Source: Nitrospirae bacterium RBG_13_39_12 (GTDB taxonomy: Bacteria; Nitrospirota; Thermodesulfovibrionia; Thermodesulfovibrionales; SM23-35). Taken from it: a stretch of DNA of 34,288 nt. The DNA lies in the NCBI GenBank assembly GCA_001805125.1, contig MHEF01000022.1, positions 1 through 34,288 on the forward strand, given 5' to 3'. The position numbers were made by a program, and so were the translations under genes. The notes beneath the pieces are model-generated. The model saw only the letters and a program-made list of their open reading frames with translations. It did not search any database and had not been told where the DNA came from. Shown one piece after another: positions 4,572 to 28,666 of the stretch (position 1 is the stretch's first letter; the number at the start of each line of letters is the position of its first letter).

Positions 4572-6125
4572 TTATAGTGATATCTCTGTTCCTTTATCAA
4601 TGCTATAAATTAGGTAATTTTTAAAGTTTCTTACCGTAGGCTGTTTTATTATAAAATCGGTTCTGTGCCATAAAAAAACCCAAGGAGAATCTGATACAAT
4701 AATTCGTTCTGCCTGTTTATAAAACAATGACCTCTTTTTAGCATCCATCGTATATTGTCCTTTTTCTATCAAGTAATCAACAGTAGTATTGCTGTATCTT
4801 GTTCTATTCCCAGCTGAACCAAAATTAGAGGAGTGAAATAAAGGAAAAAGAAAATTTTCAGGATCAGGATAATCAGCCCACCAGCTTATATAAAACATAT
4901 CAGGCTCACCATTATTTAAAGACTCCTTGTAAGCACTCCATTCAAGCTGTTTTATATTTATATTTATCCCAACAGCATTGATATAAGATTGTATAACCTC
5001 TGCTATATCAATTGCTTCTTGGTCTGCAGTTATGTAAAATTTTACTTCGATACCTTCTAAGCCCTCTTTTTTAATTATTTCTATTGATTTGTTAGGATTG
5101 TATTCATTAATATTAGGTTTATTCCAGTTTCTAATAATATCAGGAACAGGGCCTGATGCTAATCTACCTCGCTTTTCATAAATAGTATTAAGAATTTTTT
5201 CTCTGTCAATTGCGTAAGTGATGGCTTTCCTGAGAGCTCTGTTACTAAAGGGTAGTCTTGAACAATTTAGACCAAGATAATAAGTATTAAGTCCTTCAAT
5301 AGATGAAATAAGATTCTTTTTTTGAAGATCGTTTTTATATCTCGAGTACTCTGACGCTGGTATTGTGATTACATCAATGTTTCCAACATCAAACTCTGTG
5401 ACTGCTGTAAGATCCTCAGGTATTATTCTGTATATGATACCTTTAATTTTTGCATGTATATCAAAATAATGGTAATTTTTTAATAGTCTAATCTCCCTAT
5501 TTGGCAACCATTCTTCAAGGATAAATGGACCGGTACCTACAGGATGGGTGGAGAAGTCAGGCCCCCATCTCTCAACTTCCTCTATCGGAACAATATATGC
5601 AGCTGGCGTGGTTAAGAGATTTATAAAGGGAGAAAAAGGTTTTTTGAGGCGTATCTTAATGGTATAATCATCAATTGTTTTTATTCCTTTAACATTATCA
5701 GCTTTTCCTTCCATAAATTCATCTGCACCAAGGATTTTTTCTAGCACCCAAGTATTAGGTGACTTATTCTTAGGGTTTAATAATCTATTAAAGGAATACT
5801 TGATATCATTAGCCTTAACTTCACGATTATTCGAGAAGAATACACCTTGTTTGAGCCTGAAAATATATGTTAGGCCGTCTCCAGATATAACCCAATTTTT
5901 AGCAATGTCCGGATGTATTTTTAGATCTTCTCCGATTTTGACTAAGCCATTAAACAGCTTTGCTGAAATTGAACCACCTGTTACATCAACTATAAGGGCT
6001 GGATCGAGTGTAGTTGGGTTTGAATTAAGTCTGTAATATATATAACCTTTTTCTCTGTTTTGTGAAGAACATGCTGTGATGATAACTAAAATGAAAATTG
6101 CAACAAATAAAACTCGGCTCTTCAC
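4572..6125 (-). CDS. ABC transporter substrate-binding lipoprotein, family 5 (DppA/OppA-like)
   Basis: 517 aa with the lipoprotein signal 'FILVIITAC|SS'. Family-5 SBP blocks include 'LDPA', 'GLVKIGEDLKIHPDIAKNW', 'GTGPF' and 'WWADYPDPENF'. It starts at GTG, 6 nt after the stop of the upstream gene. Confidence 0.85.
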   Translation of the reverse strand: MKSRVLFVAIFILVIITACSSQNREKGYIYYRLNSNPTTLDPALIVDVTGGSISAKLFNGLVKIGEDLKIHPDIAKNWVISGDGLTYIFRLKQGVFFSNNREVKANDIKYSFNRLLNPKNKSPNTWVLEKILGADEFMEGKADNVKGIKTIDDYTIKIRLKKPFSPFINLLTTPAAYIVPIEEVERWGPDFSTHPVGTGPFILEEWLPNREIRLLKNYHYFDIHAKIKGIIYRIIPEDLTAVTEFDVGNIDVITIPASEYSRYKNDLQKKNLISSIEGLNTYYLGLNCSRLPFSNRALRKAITYAIDREKILNTIYEKRGRLASGPVPDIIRNWNKPNINEYNPNKSIEIIKKEGLEGIEVKFYITADQEAIDIAEVIQSYINAVGININIKQLEWSAYKESLNNGEPDMFYISWWADYPDPENFLFPLFHSSNFGSAGNRTRYSNTTVDYLIEKGQYTMDAKKRSLFYKQAERIIVSDSPWVFLWHRTDFIIKQPTVRNFKNYLIYSIDKGTEISL

Positions 6126-6131
6126 CTTGGA

Positions 6132-7253
6132 CTAAAACCTTAAAAAAGCACCTATGCTTCCAGAATCTTTAAACTTTTTGTTATCAGATGTAACCTCTAC
6201 CAATGCTCCCTGCTCAACTGCTTTTTGTGCTGCAAGATCAACAATATAGTTTACTTTCTGAGTCTTGCCTTTACAATATGGACATGCTGAGATATGCTGG
6301 ATAGAGAGATAGCCACAATTGTTACATTTCAGTCCAGAATGTCTATAATCTTTTATAAAAATAAGTTTCATAATCCTTCCTTCCTGTATTGCATTAAGTA
6401 CATTTTCTATACCTATGACAGCATTTTCATTCTTCATCGCTTTTGTAACAAGATCTTCAATAGTTTTATCTTCTTTCTGTTTTTCAAATGCCCTGAGTAT
6501 AGGTTCTGTCTTTTTTAATATCTCCTTGCTATTTGCGAACATTTCAGCCTGAAATGTTCCAATGATCTTTTCATTTACTGTCTGTGGAAATAGAGCCTTT
6601 ACTTTTGTGACAGCATCTTCTGAACCACCGATTATAAGCCGTCCTACGTTTTCACGTGAAAGAAATATATCCAATTGCTTAACCACTTCCTTTAAATGTA
6701 AGGATACATGATAATCTGTATGCCTTTCATAACTCTTTTCCGAAAGAGAATACCAACCACCTTTTTTATGTTTTCCTGGGACATTTTCAGAATGAACCTC
6801 AGTATATTCTTCTATTTCACCAATGTGTATGATAAATAAACGTGCTGATTCTTTATCAACTAATAAAATGGCGTACCTTTGATAGTTGTCTAGGATGTCA
6901 AGAAGCGGTTTTATATATGGTGTTTTGTCCAATATAATTTCATTTTTTATGGGAACTGAAAGATGAAATTCTACCCAGAATTTCTTTTCTTGAGAAGTCA
7001 GGATTACAAGTCCTTTTTTAAATATTCTCTTGTTTGCCATAACATAAGCATCAATTTTTTCAAAGTCACCATTTGTTCTCTTTATTTCTTTTTTATCCAT
7101 CTTTTCCAATGTTTCTTTAATCATATTTTTTACATGTATAACATAATCATATTTTTTATTTGTAATCGGGTTAACATTCAAATAAAGGCTTACAAAATAA
7201 GCCTCACCAGCACGCATCTTCGCTATCTCTCTAAGTTCTTCACGATTAAGCAT
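6132..7253 (-). CDS. eRF1/Pelota-superfamily protein (bacterial eRF1-like, baeRF/Vms1-related type) with inserted zinc ribbon
   Basis: 373 aa. The central loop 'PGKHKKGGWYS' (GGW at nt 6753-6761) lies where eRF1 carries GGQ. The C-terminal third matches eRF1/Pelota domain 3 ('GIENVLNAIQEGRIMKLIFI' ... 'SGSIGAFLRF'), interrupted by 'CNNCG...CPYCKG' (nt 6273-6326). A strong AGGAGGAGGA SD is present. Confidence 0.65.
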   Translation of the reverse strand: MLNREELREIAKMRAGEAYFVSLYLNVNPITNKKYDYVIHVKNMIKETLEKMDKKEIKRTNGDFEKIDAYVMANKRIFKKGLVILTSQEKKFWVEFHLSVPIKNEIILDKTPYIKPLLDILDNYQRYAILLVDKESARLFIIHIGEIEEYTEVHSENVPGKHKKGGWYSLSEKSYERHTDYHVSLHLKEVVKQLDIFLSRENVGRLIIGGSEDAVTKVKALFPQTVNEKIIGTFQAEMFANSKEILKKTEPILRAFEKQKEDKTIEDLVTKAMKNENAVIGIENVLNAIQEGRIMKLIFIKDYRHSGLKCNNCGYLSIQHISACPYCKGKTQKVNYIVDLAAQKAVEQGALVEVTSDNKKFKDSGSIGAFLRF

Positions 7254-12492: not shown

Positions 12493-14231
12493 TCCGCATC
12501 AGTAACCTTTACCAACGTTCCTTTTTTTGAAGTTCCGTATCTAAAGATGGTAATCCCCTTACAGCCTTTTTCATATGCAAGTAGAAATGCCTTTGCAACA
12601 TCCTCCCTTTTTGATCTAAAAGGCATGTTGATCGTTTTTGATACTGCATTATCTGTTGACTCTTGAAAACATGCCTGCATCTTAATATGATCTTCAGGCG
12701 GAATTTCATGTGCAGTTTTGAACAATTTCTTCACATCTCTTGGAACGTTTTTAATACATCTTAAATATCCTTTTTCTATAACCTTATTTTTCAGTTCCTC
12801 ACTATAGAATCCCCTTTTTTTAGTAAACTCGAAAAAATACCTATTAACCTCATAAAGTTCTGTGTCCAATATAAACCTCTTATATACAAGAGCAAATAGT
12901 GGCTCTATCCCGCTTGAAGTGTCAGCAATAATAGAAAGAGTTCCTGTCGGTGCTATTGTGGTAGTTGTCGCATTCCTGACACGAGGCATATTCGGGGCAT
13001 CATAAACAGAACCTCTAAAATTAGGGAACACTCCCCTAAGTTCAGCAAGTTCAACAGATGCCTGTCTTGCAGCATCTCTAATAAATCTCATCAAATACCG
13101 CGCAAGATTAAATGCTTTCCTGTGGTTATAAGGAATGCCAAGCAATATTAACATATCAGCCCATCCCATAATTCCAAGCCCTATTTTCCTGTTGCCCTTG
13201 TGCATTTCCTCTATAGCAGGAATTGGATATTTATTCACATCTATCGAGTTATCAAGAAACCTCACTGAGGTTCTTATGTCTTCTGCAAGACCATCAAAAT
13301 CAATATTTTTTTCCATTCTATTAAATGATATTTTATTACCTGTGATTATTGTATTTTTTACATACTTTGATAAATTTACTGAGCCTAAAATGCATGCTTC
13401 ATAAGGAAGCAACGGCTGTTCACCGCATGGATTAGTGGACTCTATTGTTCCGACATGAGGTGTTGGATTTGACCTGTTAATCCTATCAATAAATATAATT
13501 CCCGGATCCCCCGTTTCCCATGCACTTTTTACTATCTCATCGAATACTATTTTTGCTTTTATCTTGTTGACTATAGTACTGCTTCGCGGATTTATCATGT
13601 CGTACTCCATATCATGATTAAGTGCATCAATGAACGCATCTGTTATAGCCACCGATATATTGAAATTTTCAAGTTCACCTTCAGATCTTTTTATCTTTAT
13701 AAATTCAAGAATATCAGGATGGTCTACACGCAGTATACCCATATTCGCCCCTCGCCGCGCTCCACCTTGCTTTATAACGTCAGTTGCAGTGTTGTAAATT
13801 TTCATAAATGAAACAGGGCCGCTTGCTATCCCTCCTGTTGAGCGTACAATGTCTGCCTTTGGTCTTAATTTCGAGAATGAAAAGCCTGTGCCACCGCCGC
13901 TCTGCAAAATCAATGCAGCATTTTTTAATGTATCAAATATCGAGTTCATTGAGTCATTCACAGGGAGAACAAAACATGCAGCAAGCTGGCCTTTTTTCTT
14001 ACCTGCATTCATCAAGGCAGGAGAATTAGGAAGAAACCTCAGACTTTCCATTATTTCATAAAATTTTTCTTCCCATTCATCAGGCCTGCCTCCATAATAA
14101 TTCTCTGCAGTGGCAATGGTCTTTGAAACTCTTTTGAACATCTCTTCTGGAGTTTCAATAACATTCCCATTTTCATCTTTAAGGAGATATCGTGCCTTCA
14201 GAACTGTTAATGCATTATCTGTAAGAACCAT
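12489..14231 (-). CDS. nrdJ: adenosylcobalamin-dependent ribonucleotide reductase (class II)
   Basis: 580 aa. It shows 'ALTVLKARYL', 'LPNSPALMNAG', 'ACFVL', the catalytic 'STNPCGEQPLLPYEACILGSVNL' and the C-terminal 'GCKGITIFRYGT', all typical of monomeric/dimeric NrdJ. Confidence 0.9.
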   Translation of the reverse strand: MVLTDNALTVLKARYLLKDENGNVIETPEEMFKRVSKTIATAENYYGGRPDEWEEKFYEIMESLRFLPNSPALMNAGKKKGQLAACFVLPVNDSMNSIFDTLKNAALILQSGGGTGFSFSKLRPKADIVRSTGGIASGPVSFMKIYNTATDVIKQGGARRGANMGILRVDHPDILEFIKIKRSEGELENFNISVAITDAFIDALNHDMEYDMINPRSSTIVNKIKAKIVFDEIVKSAWETGDPGIIFIDRINRSNPTPHVGTIESTNPCGEQPLLPYEACILGSVNLSKYVKNTIITGNKISFNRMEKNIDFDGLAEDIRTSVRFLDNSIDVNKYPIPAIEEMHKGNRKIGLGIMGWADMLILLGIPYNHRKAFNLARYLMRFIRDAARQASVELAELRGVFPNFRGSVYDAPNMPRVRNATTTTIAPTGTLSIIADTSSGIEPLFALVYKRFILDTELYEVNRYFFEFTKKRGFYSEELKNKVIEKGYLRCIKNVPRDVKKLFKTAHEIPPEDHIKMQACFQESTDNAVSKTINMPFRSKREDVAKAFLLAYEKGCKGITIFRYGTSKKGTLVKVTDAD

Positions 14232-14458: not shown

Positions 14459-15031
14459 ATGAACCTTATTCTTAGATTATGGTTTGTACATAGGTTAAAA
14501 GGTATTTTACTATGCATCGTTCTTCTCACACTTTTCACCTCTCTTCAGGTATTTGCTGAAAGTGCTGACACTGCATTTCAGAAAGAAATTGCCACATATG
14601 AGCTATGGACTGTTGTAATCAATTTTTCGGATGTCTCTAACCCTCGATGTCAGGTGAAGGGCATAGCTATGTCTGCGGACATGAATTATAGCGGACCAGT
14701 AACAATCTGGAAAGAACAACGTAAGGATAAAATCATCCCTGTGGCTGAAGTGGGTCTTGCTAAGAGTCCAGACCCAGGTGATGTTATCCTACTCAAAGAA
14801 GGTTCTGGTATTCATACACTTATGATTAAGAGTATGAGCACTAAAGGAACGCGCAGAGACTCTTTCCCTTACATGGCATTATTCAACGTAGGGAATGGTA
14901 TGATCGAAAAAGTGGCGGAAACAGATTTTGCTATTGTAACATTAATTGATTTACATGATAATAATCACGATCTACTAATTTCATTAAAAGGCTTAAAACA
15001 GGCGTGGGGTCGTTGTGATCCGAAGAAGTAG
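14459..15031 (+). CDS. hypothetical secreted protein
   Basis: 190 aa with AGAGGAA 6 nt upstream of the ATG. An N-terminal hydrophobic signal-like segment 'LLCIVLLTLFTSLQVFA|ES' is present. I recognise no family motif. The stop codon lies inside the right inverted repeat. Confidence 0.5.
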   Translation: MNLILRLWFVHRLKGILLCIVLLTLFTSLQVFAESADTAFQKEIATYELWTVVINFSDVSNPRCQVKGIAMSADMNYSGPVTIWKEQRKDKIIPVAEVGLAKSPDPGDVILLKEGSGIHTLMIKSMSTKGTRRDSFPYMALFNVGNGMIEKVAETDFAIVTLIDLHDNNHDLLISLKGLKQAWGRCDPKK

Positions 15032-15199: not shown

Positions 15200-15976
15200 A
15201 TGTGTACAGAGCCGATTAGAGAATTCCCTCATTTTATTGGGATTGAGGAAGAAAATGTCTTTAAAAGCATTGCTAATTTAGGCGAAGATTTTTTTCTTAT
15301 CCATAACTTGGATATACTATTCAAAACTTCATTGGAACTAGAACCTCTTGATGACGTTAATCTTAAGATTCCCGCTTTTCTTTATCTTATTATACATGGT
15401 GAATTTTATCAGGGAATGACGGCATTTTTGCGAATGCACCAGTCCAAATCTTTTGTTAGTCTACGGATAGCTCTTGACTGTGCATTTACGGCTTACTACT
15501 TAATGAAACATCCGGACAAGACAGACATTTACCTGAGTAAATTGAATGACGATAAAAATCCAGAATGGAACAAAATATTCTTCAATATCAAAAGAACTAT
15601 TAAAGATGATATTGATAATTTCCCCTTAGCCAAAGGGCTACCTGAAACTCACGAGTTTTGCAGTATTTATTCCCATTCAGACGCAATAGGCCTTCTGCAT
15701 AGATACAGAATTAGCGAATCAAAATTGGAAGCGACATATTTTGACTATGAACCTAAGCTTGATGATTACAATAAATGGCTTGCACAATTAATAGGAACAT
15801 TTTTTAGGATTTACTTAATATTCTGGCAAGAAATATTTAAGCAAAAAGCTGGGGCGAAAAAAGAACAGATTGAAACTTTATTAAGGGAATATTCCTTACG
15901 GTTAAACGCTTTTTTAAAGCGGTATCCTCTCGGTGAGGTCGAAACAAAAGAGGGGAAAAAGGACAGTTCTATTTAA
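15200..15976 (+). CDS. hypothetical protein (predicted all-helical, cytoplasmic)
   Basis: 258-aa ORF with coding-like composition. I recognise no motif and no TM or signal segment. The start codon is uncertain (weak GAAGGAAA 11 nt upstream). Confidence 0.5.
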   Translation: MCTEPIREFPHFIGIEEENVFKSIANLGEDFFLIHNLDILFKTSLELEPLDDVNLKIPAFLYLIIHGEFYQGMTAFLRMHQSKSFVSLRIALDCAFTAYYLMKHPDKTDIYLSKLNDDKNPEWNKIFFNIKRTIKDDIDNFPLAKGLPETHEFCSIYSHSDAIGLLHRYRISESKLEATYFDYEPKLDDYNKWLAQLIGTFFRIYLIFWQEIFKQKAGAKKEQIETLLREYSLRLNAFLKRYPLGEVETKEGKKDSSI

Positions 15977-16048
15977 AAGCATGCCCAAATCTTCATCTTA
16001 CATGTACTGCCATTGTCATGAAGGCAATTATTAGTTTATCATGTAGTT

Positions 16049-16330
16049 ATGAATATTCGTTATTATATCAACCCGGAAACAGGTCTTCCTCATATCTATA
16101 ATCACAATGTATTTGAGCACGAGGTGGAAGATGTATTATTAAAGCCGGGGGAAGACCGTCTTGGCAAAGAAGGTTCACGAATAGCTCTGGGACAGACAAG
16201 TGCGGGACGTTATTTAAGAGTAATTTATGTTCCAGACCCTGAACCGGAGAGTGTTTTTGTCATAACTGCATTTGAATTGTCCGGCAAACCATTAACAGCA
16301 TATAAACGCAGGAGACGAAAGAAGAAATGA
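16049..16330 (+). CDS. putative type II toxin (BrnT/DUF497-like fold)
   Basis: 93 aa. 'IYNHNVFEHEVEDVL...GEDR...SRIALGQTSAGRYLRVIYVP...VFVITAFEL' follows the BrnT-like pattern and ends in a basic tail. It has a 4-nt ATGA overlap with the downstream small gene. Confidence 0.55.
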   Translation: MNIRYYINPETGLPHIYNHNVFEHEVEDVLLKPGEDRLGKEGSRIALGQTSAGRYLRVIYVPDPEPESVFVITAFELSGKPLTAYKRRRRKKK

Positions 16331-16548
16331 AAAAAAGTAGATTTCCAAAAGGATGGGATGAAAAAAGGGTGAAGAAGGTTCTCGCCCATTATGAGAAACA
16401 GACCGAAGAAGAAGCCTTGGCCGGGGATGAAGCAGCATATGAAGATAAGTCTCAAGCCATTATAGAAATCCCAGTTCAATTAGTATCTACCGTTAGGGAG
16501 CTTATAGCAAAACATCAAATACGTCATTTGAAGAAAACTGCCAGATAA
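16327..16548 (+). CDS. putative cognate antitoxin (BrnA-like partner)
   Basis: 73 aa and acidic ('WDEKRVKKVLAHYEKQTEEEALAGDEAAYED...IPVQLVSTVRELIAKH'). It is translationally coupled to the upstream toxin-like ORF, the classic two-gene TA layout. Confidence 0.5.
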   Translation: MKKSRFPKGWDEKRVKKVLAHYEKQTEEEALAGDEAAYEDKSQAIIEIPVQLVSTVRELIAKHQIRHLKKTAR

Positions 16549-16811
16549 CTTTCAACATCCTGTTTGTTTTGTATTTTAAAGTTACCTGTAACGAAACTAT
16601 CTTCTTATTATTGGAAGAAAAGCATCATCTAACAAAGAAAGACTTGCAATCTACTTCTTACTTCTTGAGAGAGAGGATAAAAGAGTCTAACTTGTTTATT
16701 GATATTTGTAATAGGAAGCAAAGGATTGGGGTCAAAGCTGAATTATACATTTTATAAAACATAACTTTGCTTACAGAGTCAGTCTTTAAATGATGTTGAA
16801 AATCTCCTTTT

Positions 16812-16973
16812 GTCACCCTGAATTCATTTCAGGGTCTCATAATATATTGAATTATTAGATGCTGTTCACCTTGGGCGAATCCGCTTAGGCAGAAAACAAT
16901 CCTGCCCTGAAGAGATTCTGAACCAAGTTCAGAATGACAAGATTAGGGTTTAGCATGACATATTAGGCAGAAA
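16812..16973. repeat. cluster of REP/MITE-like palindromic units
   Basis: GTCACCCTGAA-TTCAT-TTCAGGGTC lies at 16812-16836, and an inverted relative GATTCTGAAC-CAA-GTTCAGAATGAC at 16914-16938. Degenerate half-units are GATGCTG (16858) and AGCATGAC (16952). There is also a 12-nt direct repeat TTAGGCAGAAAA at 16885-16896 and 16963-16974. Confidence 0.55.
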
Positions 16974-16982
16974 AAATATTAT

Positions 16983-23777: not shown

Positions 23778-24413
23778 TTATATTCCTCTTCTACCCGAAC
23801 CGAAAATATAATTATGAATCTGAAGGTTCAAACGTACTTTAAGCCCGTCTTCGATCATCCATCCAGCAAGGTCTTCGGGTTTAAGAATTCCATAGGCAGG
23901 AGAAACAAGGATGTTGCATCTGTCGAATAAGTTGTATTTATTCATTATATCCTTAGACCATTCATAATCGATCTTGTTCGTGATTACAAACTTCACCTCA
24001 TCAATATTTTTTATAACATTTAGATTTGACATATCCATCTTTCCGCTCATACCACTACCCGGGGTCTTTATATCCAATATAATAACCGCTCTCCTATCAA
24101 TCTCTTTTATACTAAGCGATCCATTAGTTTCTATAAGTACTTTATAGTTATCATTAAGCATTCTTTCAATTAGATGATACACTTCTTTCTGAAGAATAGG
24201 CTCTCCGCCTGTAATTTCTACAAGGTTTATACCGGCTGACTTTACCTGTTTTATAATATCTTCTTCAGAAATTTCATTTCCTTCATAATACGCATATCTT
24301 GTATCGCAATAGGAGCATCTTAGATTGCAGCCTGTTAATCTTATGAATGTGCACGGGATTCCTGCATAAGTTGACTCACCCTGTATACTTCTAAAAATCT
24401 CACATACCTTCAT
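23778..24413 (-). CDS. queE: 7-carboxy-7-deazaguanine synthase (radical SAM)
   Basis: 211 aa. 'EIFRSIQGESTYAGIPCTFIRLTGCNLRCSYCDT' is the QueE-type Cx14Cx2C/CxxxCxxC radical-SAM N-terminus. Confidence 0.9.
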   Translation of the reverse strand: MKVCEIFRSIQGESTYAGIPCTFIRLTGCNLRCSYCDTRYAYYEGNEISEEDIIKQVKSAGINLVEITGGEPILQKEVYHLIERMLNDNYKVLIETNGSLSIKEIDRRAVIILDIKTPGSGMSGKMDMSNLNVIKNIDEVKFVITNKIDYEWSKDIMNKYNLFDRCNILVSPAYGILKPEDLAGWMIEDGLKVRLNLQIHNYIFGSGRRGI

Positions 24414-24514
24414 TTATAATCACCTGTATCTATCACTAAAGCTATTATTGTGCTGAATAAGCACCGATAATGTAAAAAGCTCATTGTCTATTATATAATA
24501 TACAAGGATTGAAA

Positions 24515-27500
24515 ATGGCTTCAGATATACAAACAGCAACTTCATCAAAATATGAAATCTTACGGGAAGTAGTTAAAGACTACCCCGGAATCCTTAGTTC
24601 AACCGAACCACTATTAAATGAACTTAATAATCATCCTAAAAAATGGGGTACTGTTGTAAAAGAAATGCGAACTTATGCCATGAAAAATTTCTATTTACAT
24701 GATCACTACGAAAAAGGCATTGAAGCAGTCAGTACTATTATTGATGTTTTACTGGAAGCTATTACCTTATCTGACATTCCTGTACAACAAGCAGCTATAG
24801 ACTGTCTTTTGTTTTATCTGGAAAAAATACTGCTTGATTGTGAAAATATCAAAAAATATAAATCTGTACTAAATGAATGCTTCACCAATTTAAATAACCT
24901 GCCTGAAAAACAGTTTTTCCTACTGATAACCAACCCTCATCAGTTAAAAAAGCTAGGACAGATCATACTTACAAAGATGCCTGCCGGTTTTGACTTTGAA
25001 GAACTAAATAATCTTTTGTACAGGTCTCTTCTTATAACTTATAAATACTGGCTTAATGTTGAAGACCCTGTAAAATGGTTTAAAAAAACTATAGATACTT
25101 CTTTAGGTGAAAAGTTCAACAACGAAATAGAAGAATCATTTTATTCTGTATCACATGATAATTTTAATAGTTTAATTCTTCACCTTAAGAGTATCAAGAA
25201 ACTTAAAGATCAATCTCTATTCCTCGAAGAACTTTTAAGACTACCAGGGTTTCTACAGTTGGTTAAATTCTATGAAGATATTACCTCTACATTACCTCAA
25301 ACAGGTGATATATATAAAGACTTCAACTTGAAGGTGTCATATCTTCTGAAAATACTTGAAACCAATGGACTTTCCAGTATACATGAAAGTACATTCAGGG
25401 AAATTAATCGTACCATATCAAATGCTATCAAAAATGTACCACCATATAAAATAAAGGATATACTTTCTGAAACATTTGCTATTTTGAAAAATAGTAACAA
25501 TATATATCCTGAAGCAGCTCTTTACTGCATACAGGGGATAGGCAATGAGATATTCAACCTGAATGATAGTAATCTTGTAGAATGGTACATACAGAAAATC
25601 ATCCCATTAGGATTCCAGTACCCGAATATAAAGGGAGCAACCGATGAGTGGCAGGTTAAATCTAACCATGCCCATTTAGAAAATATACGTGTATGGCTGG
25701 AATTGATCGAAAATAATCCAAAATGGTCTAAGTCACTTATTTCTGCTTTAATCATTAATATCACCTTAGGCGGAATACATATAAGTGATACCGATCTTTT
25801 CCAGAAAGACATTACCAAACTTCTTAACAGTGACATCAAACCAGTCTATTACTTAATTAAACAATTGGCCAAATTGTTTCCTGCCTATTTTAGTGAAATA
25901 GGTGCTGAAGGCGCATTACGTGAGGTATCAACTGAACTGGATGAGATTAATGGAAGGTCTGATTTACTTGTACATTTTTTACGAAAACAAAGCCATGTTG
26001 AGAGCAGTGCTCGTGTTGTTAGTCTCATAGAGGAGATTATAAAGTTCTGGCTTACAAGAGACAAAGCCTCTTTAAAAGAATTTTTACCTGAAGATATTTA
26101 TCCTCATGTCGATTCATCAGGTATATACATAGACGAACTCAATATTATTTTTAGCTCTATTTTCAACAGCAAAGGAATCAGTAATATTACTGACCTTTTA
26201 AATTTAAAAGAAGAAGATTTCAAAGCTATTACTGATGAAATTCCCAATGTATCTGAAAAAGAGAAAAGACGGGCATTGCTGACTATTAAATTTTATAAGC
26301 TGCTTGACAAGAAATACAAACTGAACCCTAGGGATATTAAAGACCAACTAAAAATTTCTCAGGGTTTAGGGCTTCCAAATACAGAGTTGCTGATTAATAT
26401 TTTAGAAAAAGGAAATGTCTATGAGCGGCTTGAAGGTATCTTAGGCTATCTGCAATTATTAAAGGATATCATCCTTTCTCCTGAAAGGTATGAAGCTGTT
26501 GAGAATATATTCCGCAAGAGGCATATTGCCGCAGGTATACCTTCAATGTACGGAAGTTATCATGAAAGAAAATTTGATGCGCTTTCTTTAACGTTTCGTC
26601 TGGAGAATTATGCCAACATTCTTTTTGAAGAATTAATAAATTCAATTAATCTCAAATTTATCACAAGAGCTTCATTATTTCAGATCAAAAATTTCATAAA
26701 ACTATTCTTTACTGCCATGCAATTAGATGGGATATCCTCCAGCAGGCTTGAGAATACACTGGAACTTTTATCCGTAGCTTTAGAGGTAAGAAGATTTACG
26801 TTTACACAGTATATCGACATATTCAGGAGCTTTTCAGAAGCTGTTCAGGATATAGTTAATACTTATTACAGCGGCATACATAAAAACAATCTCAGGCACA
26901 TTATACTTCAGCTCGGTTCAGATAAAATATTGCCTAAATACTTTGTACAGCATGACAGGCACAGCGACTTTGAGCTTATTAATATGGTAACAGAAGCGTT
27001 TCTAAGAGACTTTGTTTCCAGCTCTTTTGGTCTACAGCAGCTGGACAATTTTATAATTAAAATACTTAAAACGCTATTTAAACAGGCAGAAGATTTGGAT
27101 ATACAGAATCTGGACTTGCTGATGAGCTACGACCCTAAGAAAGCTTTATCCAGCATTTATACCCCTAATAAAGCCACCTACGACAGAATTCATCTGGGTA
27201 ATAAAGGATATAACCTTATAAGAATGTCATCTTTGGATATCTCTGTTCCCCCGGGTTTTATTATCACTTCAGAGGTGTTTCGTTGCAGACAGGCAATAAA
27301 TAAATTCCGTTTTGTCAGAGATAATCTTAATAAAAAGATTAACAAACAGATTTTGGAACTCGAAAGAGTTACAGGCAAATATTTCGGGCATATTGATAAT
27401 CCATTGCTTGTATCAATAAGGAGTGGTGGGGCAATCTCCTTGCCCGGCATGATGATTTCTTTTCTTAATGTTGGAATTAACGAAGACATTGTAGCAGGAT

Positions 27501-28666
27501 TAATAAAACAGACGGGCAAGCCCTGGTTTGTTTGGGACTGTTATAGGCGCTTCTTGCAAGGTTGGGGAATGTCTTTTGGCATTGAAAGGGACAGATTTGA
27601 TTATGTCATCAATTCTTTTAAAAATAAATACAAGGTTCCAAGAAAAATTCAGTTTACTCCTGAACAGATGAGAGAGGTGGCGCTTGCTTATCGTGAAATC
27701 ATTAAAAGTAAAGGGATAGAAGTGGTTGATGATCCGAGAATCCAACTTGAGACAGCAATATCTCAGGTTTTTCAATCCTGGTTTTCTAAAAAGGCCCATG
27801 ATTACCGTGAGATACTTGGTCTTTCTGAAAACTGGGGGACAGCAGTCATTGTACAGGCAATGGTTTATGGTAACCTGGATATTAACTCAGGCACAGGTGT
27901 TCTTTTTACACGCAATCCAAAGGAGTCCGGAGACAGGGTGATGCTATGGGGTGATTTTGCTTTGAGAGCACAGGGCGAGGATATAGTATCGGGACTGATA
28001 AAGACATTGCCTTTATCTAAAGAGCAACAGGATATTGAAGAGAGAACACAAGACATTTCATTGGAAGAAAGTTTTCCAGAGATATATAATATGTTGTTGA
28101 AAATAGTCAAGGACTTAATTTATAAAGAAAGATGGGGTGCTCAGGAAATCGAATTCACCTTCGAAGGTAAAGATAAGGATAAACTTTATATCCTCCAGGC
28201 ACGTGACATGTCTATCAGAAGGACAGAAAGTTTTATGGCATTTGTTCCATCTAAAGAGCTTTATTTAAAATATCTTTCCAATGGGATAGGAGTAGGCGGT
28301 GGTGCACTGAGTGGAAGAGTTGTTTTTGATTTAAACGGAATTAAAGAGTTCAGAGAAAAAGACCCGGACATACCACTTATTTTGATTCGATCAGATACCG
28401 TTCCTGATGATATCAGGCATATTTCAGAATCTGATGGACTTCTTACCGCACGTGGTGGTTCAACTTCTCATGCAGCAATTATTGCAAACCGGCTCGGAAA
28501 AACCTGTGTGGTAGGGTGTAATAATTTAATTGTATTGGAACATGAAAAAAAATGTAAATTCAAAAGACGTACTTTAAAAGAGGGTGATTACTTGAGCATT
28601 GATGGCAGGAACGGCTCGGTTTATATGGGCAGACATCAGGTGAAGGAAATCAGAATATCAGCATGA
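24515..28666 (+). CDS. large multidomain dikinase-like protein: unassigned ~885-aa N-terminal region + PPDK-type nucleotide-binding (ATP-grasp) domain + phospho-histidine swivel domain; no PEP/pyruvate TIM-barrel domain
   Basis: The ORF is open from TTG 24509, but ATG 24515 sits 6 nt after AAGGA. All aa numbers for this gene count from the TTG at 24509. PPDK-like blocks at aa ~893-1240 (nt ~27185-28228) are 'LGNKGYNL', 'SIRSGGAISLPGMMISFLNVG', 'WDCYRRFLQGWG', 'GTGVLFTRNP...AQGEDIVSG' and 'QEIEFTFE...LYILQARD'. The swivel domain at aa ~1255-1380 has 'LLTARGGSTSHAAIIANRLGKTCVVGC' (His1321 at nt 28469-28471). The protein ends right after 'SIDGRNGSVYMG'. Confidence 0.8.
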   Translation: MASDIQTATSSKYEILREVVKDYPGILSSTEPLLNELNNHPKKWGTVVKEMRTYAMKNFYLHDHYEKGIEAVSTIIDVLLEAITLSDIPVQQAAIDCLLFYLEKILLDCENIKKYKSVLNECFTNLNNLPEKQFFLLITNPHQLKKLGQIILTKMPAGFDFEELNNLLYRSLLITYKYWLNVEDPVKWFKKTIDTSLGEKFNNEIEESFYSVSHDNFNSLILHLKSIKKLKDQSLFLEELLRLPGFLQLVKFYEDITSTLPQTGDIYKDFNLKVSYLLKILETNGLSSIHESTFREINRTISNAIKNVPPYKIKDILSETFAILKNSNNIYPEAALYCIQGIGNEIFNLNDSNLVEWYIQKIIPLGFQYPNIKGATDEWQVKSNHAHLENIRVWLELIENNPKWSKSLISALIINITLGGIHISDTDLFQKDITKLLNSDIKPVYYLIKQLAKLFPAYFSEIGAEGALREVSTELDEINGRSDLLVHFLRKQSHVESSARVVSLIEEIIKFWLTRDKASLKEFLPEDIYPHVDSSGIYIDELNIIFSSIFNSKGISNITDLLNLKEEDFKAITDEIPNVSEKEKRRALLTIKFYKLLDKKYKLNPRDIKDQLKISQGLGLPNTELLINILEKGNVYERLEGILGYLQLLKDIILSPERYEAVENIFRKRHIAAGIPSMYGSYHERKFDALSLTFRLENYANILFEELINSINLKFITRASLFQIKNFIKLFFTAMQLDGISSSRLENTLELLSVALEVRRFTFTQYIDIFRSFSEAVQDIVNTYYSGIHKNNLRHIILQLGSDKILPKYFVQHDRHSDFELINMVTEAFLRDFVSSSFGLQQLDNFIIKILKTLFKQAEDLDIQNLDLLMSYDPKKALSSIYTPNKATYDRIHLGNKGYNLIRMSSLDISVPPGFIITSEVFRCRQAINKFRFVRDNLNKKINKQILELERVTGKYFGHIDNPLLVSIRSGGAISLPGMMISFLNVGINEDIVAGLIKQTGKPWFVWDCYRRFLQGWGMSFGIERDRFDYVINSFKNKYKVPRKIQFTPEQMREVALAYREIIKSKGIEVVDDPRIQLETAISQVFQSWFSKKAHDYREILGLSENWGTAVIVQAMVYGNLDINSGTGVLFTRNPKESGDRVMLWGDFALRAQGEDIVSGLIKTLPLSKEQQDIEERTQDISLEESFPEIYNMLLKIVKDLIYKERWGAQEIEFTFEGKDKDKLYILQARDMSIRRTESFMAFVPSKELYLKYLSNGIGVGGGALSGRVVFDLNGIKEFREKDPDIPLILIRSDTVPDDIRHISESDGLLTARGGSTSHAAIIANRLGKTCVVGCNNLIVLEHEKKCKFKRRTLKEGDYLSIDGRNGSVYMGRHQVKEIRISA

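Follow-up and report, generated by a model that had tools for sequence, protein, structure and literature searches.

Here we describe DIK, a giant dikinase-like protein of 1,383 amino acids (aa) encoded on contig MHEF01000022.1 of Nitrospirae bacterium RBG_13_39_12, a stretch of 34,288 nucleotides (nt) that was analysed as a whole and is referred to below as the window. The protein combines an apparently intact ATP-grasp and phospho-histidine swivel engine of the pyruvate phosphate dikinase (PPDK) type with an N-terminal module of 885 aa (N-module), and its gene persistently adjoins a gene for glyceraldehyde-3-phosphate dehydrogenase (GAPDH). It is very probable, in our judgement, that DIK is an active His-swivel dikinase of PPDK ancestry, and that the core of the N-module serves as its acceptor site. 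What is new is the combination of domains, the predicted fold of the putative acceptor module and the linkage to GAPDH. Taken to its furthest point, the evidence raises the possibility, which we regard as doubtful, that the family carries out an undescribed reaction in the trunk of glycolysis and gluconeogenesis, namely that of an AMP- and pyrophosphate (PPi)-linked dikinase interconverting 3-phosphoglycerate (3-PG) and 1,3-bisphosphoglycerate (1,3-BPG) by means of a catalytic domain of new fold, together with GAPDH, in hundreds of energy-limited anaerobes.

Judged from its sequence, DIK clearly belongs to the His-swivel dikinase superfamily, as both engine domains and their catalytic residues are present. 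Pfam detects PPDK_N (E 1.9e-30) and PEP-utilizers (PF00391, E 1.8e-18) in the protein and no other domain, and aa 892-1382 correspond, in a phmmer alignment, to residues 16-517 of the Clostridium symbiosum PPDK (E 6e-81), in agreement with an initial annotation that had recognised a PPDK-type ATP-grasp and swivel by reading the letters of the sequence. The motifs quoted there all lie where they had been placed (in this sentence counted from a TTG at 24509): LGNKGYNL at 896-903, SIRSGGAISLPGMMISFLNVG at 969-989, WDCYRRFLQGWG at 1009-1020, GTGVLFTRNP at 1128-1137, AQGEDIVSG at 1154-1162, QEIEFTFE at 1212-1219, LQARD at 1229-1233 and the phospho-carrier motif GGSTSH...GC at 1316-1337, including His1321 and its codon (Table 1). 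When aligned with the C. symbiosum structure 1kbl, DIK keeps the equivalents of K22, R92, the SMPGMM loop, R135, D321, E323, Q335, R337, T453 and H455; those of D321/E323/Q335/R337 fall in QEIEFTFE...LQAR and those of Thr453/His455 in GGSTSH. Among 127 full-length homologues, which are 32-70% identical to the window protein, the catalytic residues of the engine, T-S-H included, are at least 97% conserved, and the engine holds 75 columns that are at least 97% identical, with a block conservation of 0.5-0.62. The engine can thus be taken, on the strength of its residues, to be catalytically intact.

The PPDK model TIGR01828 gives DIK 396.6 bits, with model positions 17-335 in the ATP-grasp, against an equivalog cutoff of 843.45, whereas the models for phosphoenolpyruvate (PEP) synthase give 83.8 bits (TIGR01418; cutoff 739.75) and 98.4 bits (NF005057; cutoff 598). 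DIK therefore shares the ATP-grasp and swivel of PPDK while lacking the TIM barrel and staying under the equivalog cutoff, and it falls outside PEP synthase (pyruvate, water dikinase) both by score and by absence of the barrel. So marked a preference for PPDK over PEP synthase (396.6 vs 84-98 bits) suggests that the engine uses ATP and inorganic phosphate (Pi) with release of AMP and PPi, or the reverse. The protein ends at the equivalent of PPDK residue ~518, which is the end of the PPDK swivel domain, and neither Pfam nor phmmer places any domain between ATP-grasp and swivel. The PEP/pyruvate barrel, which the initial annotation had reported missing, is indeed absent: PEP-utilizers_C (PF02896) was found neither in the DIK protein nor anywhere in the window, nor in 238 related loci amounting to 3.08 Mb in total. 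This absence rules out a split PPDK with a nearby barrel gene.

The N-module (aa 1-885) is rich in I, L, K, E and N, and no motif had been recognised in it on first reading; sequence, profile and fold searches likewise assign it to no characterised family. There was no meaningful match in Pfam (E<=1), NCBIfam, PADLOC or PHROGs, in a phmmer search of the PDB or with the family profile against the PDB, and hits to VID27_PH (E 0.28) and phrog_1233 (E 0.006) were taken as chance. Across the 127 homologues it nonetheless holds 53 columns that are at least 97% identical, chiefly the charged or polar residues D/E/R/K/H/S/Y, and no invariant Cys. Block conservation is highest, at 0.58-0.69, over aa 400-500 and 650-700, where it equals or exceeds that of the engine, and column conservation is the lowest of the whole protein at aa 1-350 (0.30-0.41). 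Residues D425, D427, E465, R469, D476, E477, R481, D483, R490, K491, H494 and E496 of the most conserved block are invariant, as are K668, R669, H670, S677, Y679, G680, Y682 and E684 of the hairpin motif (Table 1), and R695, E827, R831 and D844 are near-invariant. From this pattern we infer an active-site-like signature, as expected of a catalytic or ligand-binding domain, which would fit a role in specifying the acceptor.

Since conservation peaks in the core and is lowest over aa 1-350, the N-module is a two-part structure, made up of a solenoid-like arm that varies (aa 1-~329) and a compact core under constraint (aa ~330-885) that is not a repeat. The helical-repeat character first ascribed to the entire region accordingly holds for aa 1-~330 and not for the core. 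A first AlphaFold2 (AF2) model, computed with a multiple sequence alignment (MSA) of 23 sequences, was all-alpha with a predicted local distance difference test score (pLDDT) of 77, its confidence being lowest exactly at the most conserved loops, and Foldseek returned for it only generic HEAT/ARM solenoid proteins (TM ~0.15). A second model, of aa 330-885 with a more diverse MSA of 90 sequences, reached a pLDDT of 90.8 and a predicted TM score (pTM) of 0.89; it consists of helices and a single beta-hairpin, which is made by the invariant KRHIAxGIPSxYGxYxE motif. This core model has no neighbour in the PDB by Foldseek (best E 0.03, probability 0.23, TM ~0.11) and no match in BFVD, so that the core, as modelled, is a novel fold relative to solved structures and BFVD. 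Nor does the region conceal a permuted barrel. Compared by hhalign to a set of aligned bona fide PPDK TIM barrels, the N-module scores a probability of 1.1%, and with a profile of the whole family the swivel-domain tail alone matches the PPDK set. This value and the helices-plus-hairpin architecture also rule out a PEP-carboxylase-like or dispersed-strand barrel.

When 1.84 billion representatives were searched exhaustively by phmmer for aa 1-885, 518 clusters at 50% identity were recovered, 203 of them with E<1e-30, and carriers were counted in at least 574-580 species among species-representative genomes. Complete members are nearly all 1,350-1,430 aa long, and the order N-module, PPDK_N, PEP-utilizers is kept in 24-26 of 28 distant members. 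The nearest relatives of the window protein are found in Nitrospirota/Thermodesulfovibrionia (up to 77% identity). Further carriers belong to the Thermodesulfobacteriota (Syntrophobacteria, Desulfobacterales, Desulfobulbia including the cable bacteria Electrothrix and Electronema, Smithella/Syntrophaceae, and Thermodesulfobacteria), to Thermoleophilia, Gemmatimonadota, Acidobacteriota, Eisenbacteria, Riflebacteria and some members of the Bacillota, Bacteroidales and Magnetococcales. Cultured strains with a member of the family include Thermosulfurimonas dismutans S95, Desulfoferrobacter suflitae DRH4 and Desulforhabdus sp. TSK. Members go under such names as "pyruvate,orthophosphate dikinase", "phosphoenolpyruvate synthase" and "PEP/pyruvate-binding domain-containing protein", all of them generic, and full-text literature searches found no paper on the family. 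It is, in short, large, uncharacterised, widespread in mostly anaerobic bacteria, and mis-annotated. Two high-GC members (P0155, P0157) have a hemerythrin domain added at the N-terminus, and one Thermoleophilia subclade (loci L099, L101, L104, L120, L122, L129, L148 and L158) swaps the first ~315 residues, so that only aa 316-1373 align; in this subclade the long GAPDH gene described below, GAPL, is divergent upstream and gap-pgk-tpi lies downstream. A link to sulfate activation, as a supplier of AMP and PPi, was considered and is weakened by the presence of the family in Thermoleophilia, Gemmatimonadota, Acidobacteriota and Smithella.

The decisive clue to function comes from gene neighbourhood. 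In the window, DIK is followed after 47 nt by GAPL, a long GAPDH paralogue; no terminator was found in the spacer, GAPL has a Shine-Dalgarno sequence of its own, and the two are probable operon partners. In an unsupervised clustering of neighbours over 82 loci, GAPDH emerged as the sole broadly conserved neighbour, present in 60 of 81 loci on the same strand at a median of 40 nt downstream. Two independent scans found a GAPDH gene no more than 2.5 kb from DIK in 96 of 109 informative loci (88%), and a gene for GAPDH, phosphoglycerate kinase (PGK) or triose-phosphate isomerase (TPI) within 6 kb in 98 of the 109. The adjacency holds in at least five phyla through changes in gene order, orientation and GAPDH isoform. 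DIK-GAPL is the arrangement in Nitrospirota, most Thermoleophilia, Gemmatimonadota, Acidobacteriota, Eisenbacteria and Bacillota; Syntrophobacteria show rpoN-hpf-ptsN-rapZ-EIIA(Man)-GNAT-DIK-GAPL-gap-pgk-tpi-secG; Thermodesulfobacteriales, T. dismutans S95 and Bacteroidales have gap-DIK-GAPL-pgk-tpi; other loci read DIK-GAPL-pgk-tpi-secG or DIK-pgk; Desulfobulbia have aroK-aroC-glgA-gap-DIK; GAPL is convergent and directly downstream of DIK in Smithella; and a second Thermoleophilia clade has GAPL divergent upstream of DIK-gap-pgk-tpi.

Scanned from the side of GAPL, DIK stands immediately upstream in 44 loci and not in 19. The latter are mostly from Desulfobulbia, where GAPL heads a GAPL-pgk-tpi cluster and DIK accompanies canonical gap elsewhere in the genome, as in JBMONN01, whose contigs 4 and 37 carry GAPL-pgk-tpi and gap-DIK separately. 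This rules out GAPL as an obligate partner of DIK, and because DIK in Desulfobulbia sits with canonical gap, the invariant is that DIK lies beside a GAPDH and not beside GAPL as such. In Candidatus Electrothrix sp. YB6 (L064, 223-6757) there is no adjacent GAPDH, and a gene of the His_Phos_1/phosphoglycerate-mutase (PGM) family (224 aa) lies immediately 5' of DIK on the same strand, with genes for a HEAT-repeat protein and a transketolase before it. No other fetched locus has this PGM-family neighbour. In Syntrophobacteraceae, GAPL is followed in some loci (L021, L023, L024 at 13536-14168, and L027) by a gene for a tandem-CBS-domain protein of ~210 aa. Paired CBS domains are frequent binders of adenine nucleotides, and the third subunit of phenylphosphate synthase, likewise a split dikinase, is a CBS protein.

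GAPL itself scores 329.1 bits with TIGR01534 (type I GAPDH), below the equivalog cutoff of 367.2. It keeps Cys149, His176, Thr179, Arg195 and Arg231, which make up the catalytic Cys/His pair and the Ps and Pi phosphate sites, and conserves the motifs SCTT, HA(V/Q)T, DLRKNRS and VR(I/V)P. Arg (motif NxGR) takes the place of Asp32, the residue that specifies NAD, and the protein has six conserved insertions, one of them 35-50 aa long near the C-terminus. It is a distinct long isoform, with lengths of 411-480 aa in relatives. These residues suggest that GAPL is probably a catalytically competent, NADP(H)-preferring GAPDH, and because the catalytic Cys/His and both phosphate sites are kept, it would be expected to handle substrates of the glyceraldehyde 3-phosphate/1,3-BPG type.

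In the mechanism that we propose, the ATP-grasp would pyrophosphorylate or phosphorylate His1319 from ATP, probably with conversion of Pi to PPi, and the C-terminal swivel, on a single tether, would bring the phosphoryl group to a site formed by core aa ~330-885. The novel-fold N-module would stand in for the PEP/pyruvate TIM barrel, and the solenoid arm (aa 1-329) may offer a surface for docking or regulation. In the established enzymology of dikinases, namely PPDK, PEP synthase (PpsA), rifampicin phosphotransferase (RPH) and plant glucan-water dikinase (GWD), the acceptor site lies in the third domain, and because of this precedent the N-module can by analogy be given the same role. The idea of an N-terminal acceptor module, put forward when the sequence was first read, gains support from the intact engine and the active-site-like conservation of the N-module; we nonetheless infer this acceptor role, and likewise which compound is the acceptor, that Pi/PPi is used and in which direction flux runs.

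Gene context leads us to place the acceptor, tentatively and without regarding the assignment as probable, at the triose-phosphate node, with 3-PG/1,3-BPG as the leading candidate. The reaction would be 3-PG + ATP + Pi <-> 1,3-BPG + AMP + PPi, an AMP/PPi-linked parallel to PGK, with the adjacent GAPDH consuming or supplying the labile acyl phosphate. We favour this pair because an acyl phosphate is the simplest link between a phospho-His donor and GAPDH. The free energy of hydrolysis is about -62 kJ/mol for PEP and about -49 kJ/mol for an acyl phosphate, so that a phospho-His able to make PEP should be energetically able to make an acyl phosphate as well. The invariant Arg, Lys, His and acidic residues of the N-module would fit a bis-anionic ligand and Mg2+.

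Several observations weigh against this assignment. What points to 3-PG/1,3-BPG in particular is synteny and nothing else, and in about 10% of loci no triose-phosphate gene lies close to DIK. The same operons encode PGK, which means that DIK is not needed as a gap filler; a DIK route would have to be a parallel one, much as PPDK or PpsA is found alongside pyruvate kinase. DIK stands beside the probable NADP-type GAPL in most clades and beside a canonical, NAD-type gap with Asp32 in Desulfobulbia, and with two types of GAPDH as partners no consistent direction of flux can be drawn. Co-transcription with gluconeogenic genes, moreover, fits a PEP-forming enzyme equally well. DIK could on that account still be a PPDK or PEP synthase, in which the N-module forms a non-homologous pyruvate/PEP site and which is paired with a gluconeogenic (NADP-type) GAPDH, in the way that gapB and pckA of Bacillus form a co-regulated, gluconeogenesis-specific pair. 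The engine is nearest to bona fide PPDK, the family is entered in source databases under PPDK or PEP synthase, the change of Asp32 to Arg in GAPL suggests an anabolic NADPH enzyme, and the linkage is to glycolysis/gluconeogenesis operons generally. We still think this rather improbable. Had the reaction stayed the same, it would be unparsimonious to exchange a working TIM barrel for 885 unrelated residues; the N-module has no invariant Cys to match the acid/base Cys of PEP-utilising barrels and, by hhalign, no likeness to the barrel; and the adjacency is specific to GAPDH, even between gap and pgk, rather than to enolase, pgm or pyruvate enzymes. Canonical PPDKs also occur in Thermodesulfovibrionia, other Nitrospirota and Smithella metagenome-assembled genomes; these were retrieved with a consensus bait, and among the 80 loci listed, which are scattered over phyla, none shares an assembly with DIK.

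Dikinases are known to swap acceptor modules, as RPH and GWD do, and the acceptor of DIK might be a different one: a storage glucan, glycerate, a sugar phosphate or a metabolite unrelated to GAPDH chemistry. Desulfobulbia and a number of Desulfobacterales loci have the glycogen/starch synthase gene glgA a short way upstream of DIK, a glucan phosphorylase gene lies ~4 kb upstream in L001, and the PGM-family and transketolase genes precede DIK in Electrothrix. However, Pfam detects no carbohydrate-binding module (CBM), glgA adjacency is limited to few clades whereas that of GAPDH is general, and the PGM-family neighbour belongs to a single locus, all of which makes such an acceptor unlikely, if still worth serious attention. 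A phosphorylated His1319 might alternatively be directed at a protein, such as GAPDH/GAPL or an EIIA-type partner, with the helical N-module as docking platform and DIK as a phosphotransferase or regulator, in an ATP-driven relay that would either resemble the phosphotransferase system (PTS) or regulate GAPDH. The swivel domain is of the family found in Enzyme I of the PTS, the N-terminal arm is solenoid-like as is typical of protein binding, some members carry sensory hemerythrin domains, and the six insertions of GAPL could be docking sites. Immediately 5' of DIK in Syntrophobacteria and Thermodesulfobacteriales stands ptsN-rapZ-EIIA(Man)-GNAT, whose last gene is translationally coupled to DIK. 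This linkage to the nitrogen PTS is clade-specific, though (about 20 of 160 loci), and without an HPr-like open reading frame (ORF); the densest conservation lies in buried-looking charged motifs of the core and not in the arm, which is more typical of small-molecule catalysis; and the existence of two GAPDH isoforms as partners speaks against a co-evolved interface. We consider a protein target improbable. That the N-module is a mere non-catalytic scaffold, on a truncated PPDK that obtains its barrel in trans or on a decaying relic, seems to us highly improbable: engine-only 'PPDK' families do exist (see below), but PEP-utilizers_C is missing from the window and the related loci, the N-module is as conserved as the engine with its 53 near-invariant and mostly charged positions, and retention of full length in so many species excludes decay.

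The proximity of DIK to the PTS genes could be mere operon juxtaposition or a nitrogen-PTS regulatory link. It is seen in loci L009, L011-L014, L021-L027, L031 and L045 (Syntrophobacteria, Thermodesulfobacteriales), where DIK comes directly after rpoN-hpf-ptsN-rapZ-EIIA(Man) and a gene for a RimI-like GNAT; in L012 the stop codon of GNAT abuts the start of DIK (6782/6783; cluster 4800-6783). No HPr-like small ORF was found between EIIA(Man) and DIK.

In the window, the longest ORF, which is also the sole long ORF at that place, extends over 24509..28666 (+) from the TTG codon. The ATG at 24515 is the likely start of DIK, because it follows a Shine-Dalgarno-like AAGGA and homologues begin at an equivalent Met; from there the gene comprises 1,383 codons and a stop codon. 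Unless stated otherwise, residues are counted from this ATG. The coordinates of DIK, its parts and GAPL are collected in Table 1.

Table 1. Features of the DIK-GAPL locus, in positions of the window
Feature	Position	Strand	Basis or remark
Shine-Dalgarno-like AAGGA	24504..24508	+	Read from sequence; 6 nt 5' of ATG 24515
DIK, 1,383 aa	24515..28666	+	Full-length homologues 1,350-1,430 aa
Variable alpha-solenoid-like arm, aa 1-329	24515..25501	+	AF2 all helices, pLDDT ~85-95; HEAT/ARM fold matches
Conserved core of N-module, aa 330-885	25502..27169	+	AF2 with 90-sequence MSA; presumed acceptor/catalytic domain
Most conserved block GG(V/I)xIxDTDLFQ(K/R)D...FP(V/A)YF(S/N)EIGAEGxLR...D..HFLRKQSHVE, aa 420-496	25772..26002	+	Conservation
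Beta-hairpin motif (I/L)(Y/F)xKRHIAxGIPSxYGxYxExKF, aa 662-687	26498..26575	+	AF2 strands aa 662-670 and 675-683
PPDK-type ATP-grasp nucleotide-binding domain, aa 886-1240	27170..28234	+	Pfam PPDK_N; TIGR01828
Phospho-His swivel domain (PEP-utilizers, mobile), aa 1253-1378	28271..28648	+	PF00391; matches isolated PPDK central domain 2fm4
Catalytic His codon CAT in GGSTSH	28469..28471	+	His1319 from ATG, His1321 counted from TTG
GAPL, long GAPDH paralogue, 425 aa	28714..29991	+	Pfam Gp_dh_N, Gp_dh_C; 47 nt after DIK

The surrounding sequence is a low-GC (~36%) bacterial chromosome segment with the housekeeping genes pyrF, dcd, an opp-type transporter, RNR, leuA, pssA, psd, ilvC and queE. The QueE-type radical-SAM gene (7-carboxy-7-deazaguanine synthase; 23778-24413, minus strand; 251 bits with TIGR04349, under the cutoff of 300) lies upstream of DIK and divergent from it, an arrangement that recurs in several Nitrospirota relatives (L001, L004-L007, L019). 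This synteny is clade-specific and probably unrelated to DIK. Elsewhere in the window, a 372-aa protein encoded at 6132-7253 (minus strand) matches baeRF family 10 (eRF1-like; PF18854, E 7e-33), between genes for a peptide-type ABC transporter binding protein and a Peptidase_C26/GATase; eRF1-like proteins of the baeRF sort are uncommon in bacteria. Two ORFs of 190 and 258 aa at 14459-15031 and 15200-15976 (plus strand) have no Pfam match, and the ~1 kb that follows them, at 15977-16982, contains neither an ORF of at least 100 aa nor any Rfam or tRNA match.

An abundant and conserved enzyme of 1,383 aa that resides in gap-pgk-tpi operons, occurs in at least 580 species of several phyla and has been mis-annotated would constitute a substantial gap in a central carbon metabolism thought to be essentially complete. 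If the acceptor is indeed 3-PG/1,3-BPG, DIK would add a new step to the glycolysis/gluconeogenesis trunk and a new ATP/AMP/PPi mode of energy coupling at the GAPDH step, in parallel to the relation of pyruvate kinase and PPDK. Such a reaction would bear on the balance of AMP and PPi and on gluconeogenesis near thermodynamic limits in sulfate reducers, syntrophs and cable bacteria. Even with another acceptor, the N-module would represent a new catalytic fold mounted on a well-understood phospho-His engine, and one that is accessible to enzymology and structural work. Metabolic reconstructions that count DIK as PPDK or PpsA are probably wrong.

Among known systems, PPDK (C. symbiosum 1KBL/1DIK; TIGR01828) is the closest, with a homologous ATP-grasp and swivel, the T-S-H motif and the residues that catalyse the nucleotide partial reaction, but it has a C-terminal TIM barrel where DIK has an unrelated 885-aa module at the front and the swivel as its C-terminus. 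The engine-only 'PPDK' proteins (NF004531/PRK05878, 534 positions) resemble DIK in having ATP-grasp and swivel without a barrel, and their model gives it 305.6 bits, under the family cutoff of 456; unlike DIK, they lack the N-module. RPH (5FBS/5HV1) shares with DIK an ATP-grasp followed by a C-terminal swivel His and an acceptor domain that is not a barrel: residues 767-846 of the 867 in chain 5fbs align to the DIK swivel, and positions 145-223 of the RPH model NF041857 to the ATP-grasp. That model nevertheless gives DIK 34.4 bits against a cutoff of 999, the rifampicin-binding domain of RPH sits between ATP-grasp and swivel whereas the module of DIK is N-terminal, and Foldseek finds no fold likeness between the N-module and RPH chains. 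The domain order of DIK, which had been thought unusual throughout, is therefore distinctive in the N-terminal placement of the putative acceptor module, while the succession of ATP-grasp and C-terminal swivel His recurs in RPH.

Plant GWD and PWD likewise have an acceptor module N-terminal to the engine and a phospho-His intermediate, but GWD carries CBM45 or CBM20 modules and has its His domain before the nucleotide-binding domain, whereas Pfam finds no CBM in DIK and the order is ATP-grasp, then His. Enzyme I and EI-Ntr of the PTS have a homologous swivel His that passes phosphate on and a helical subdomain for partner recognition; they are charged by PEP in a TIM barrel and not by ATP in an ATP-grasp. 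Matches to them are weak and confined to the swivel (TIGR01417 21.4 vs 341.7), and Pfam detects no PEP-utilizers_N in DIK, just as it detects no PEP-utilizers_C. The likeness to PGK, finally, is hypothetical and functional only, consisting in making or using 1,3-BPG beside GAPDH: the two proteins share no homology, and PGK transfers phosphate directly and in line between ATP and ADP, as against the putative ATP(+Pi)/AMP(+PPi) route of DIK through phospho-His.

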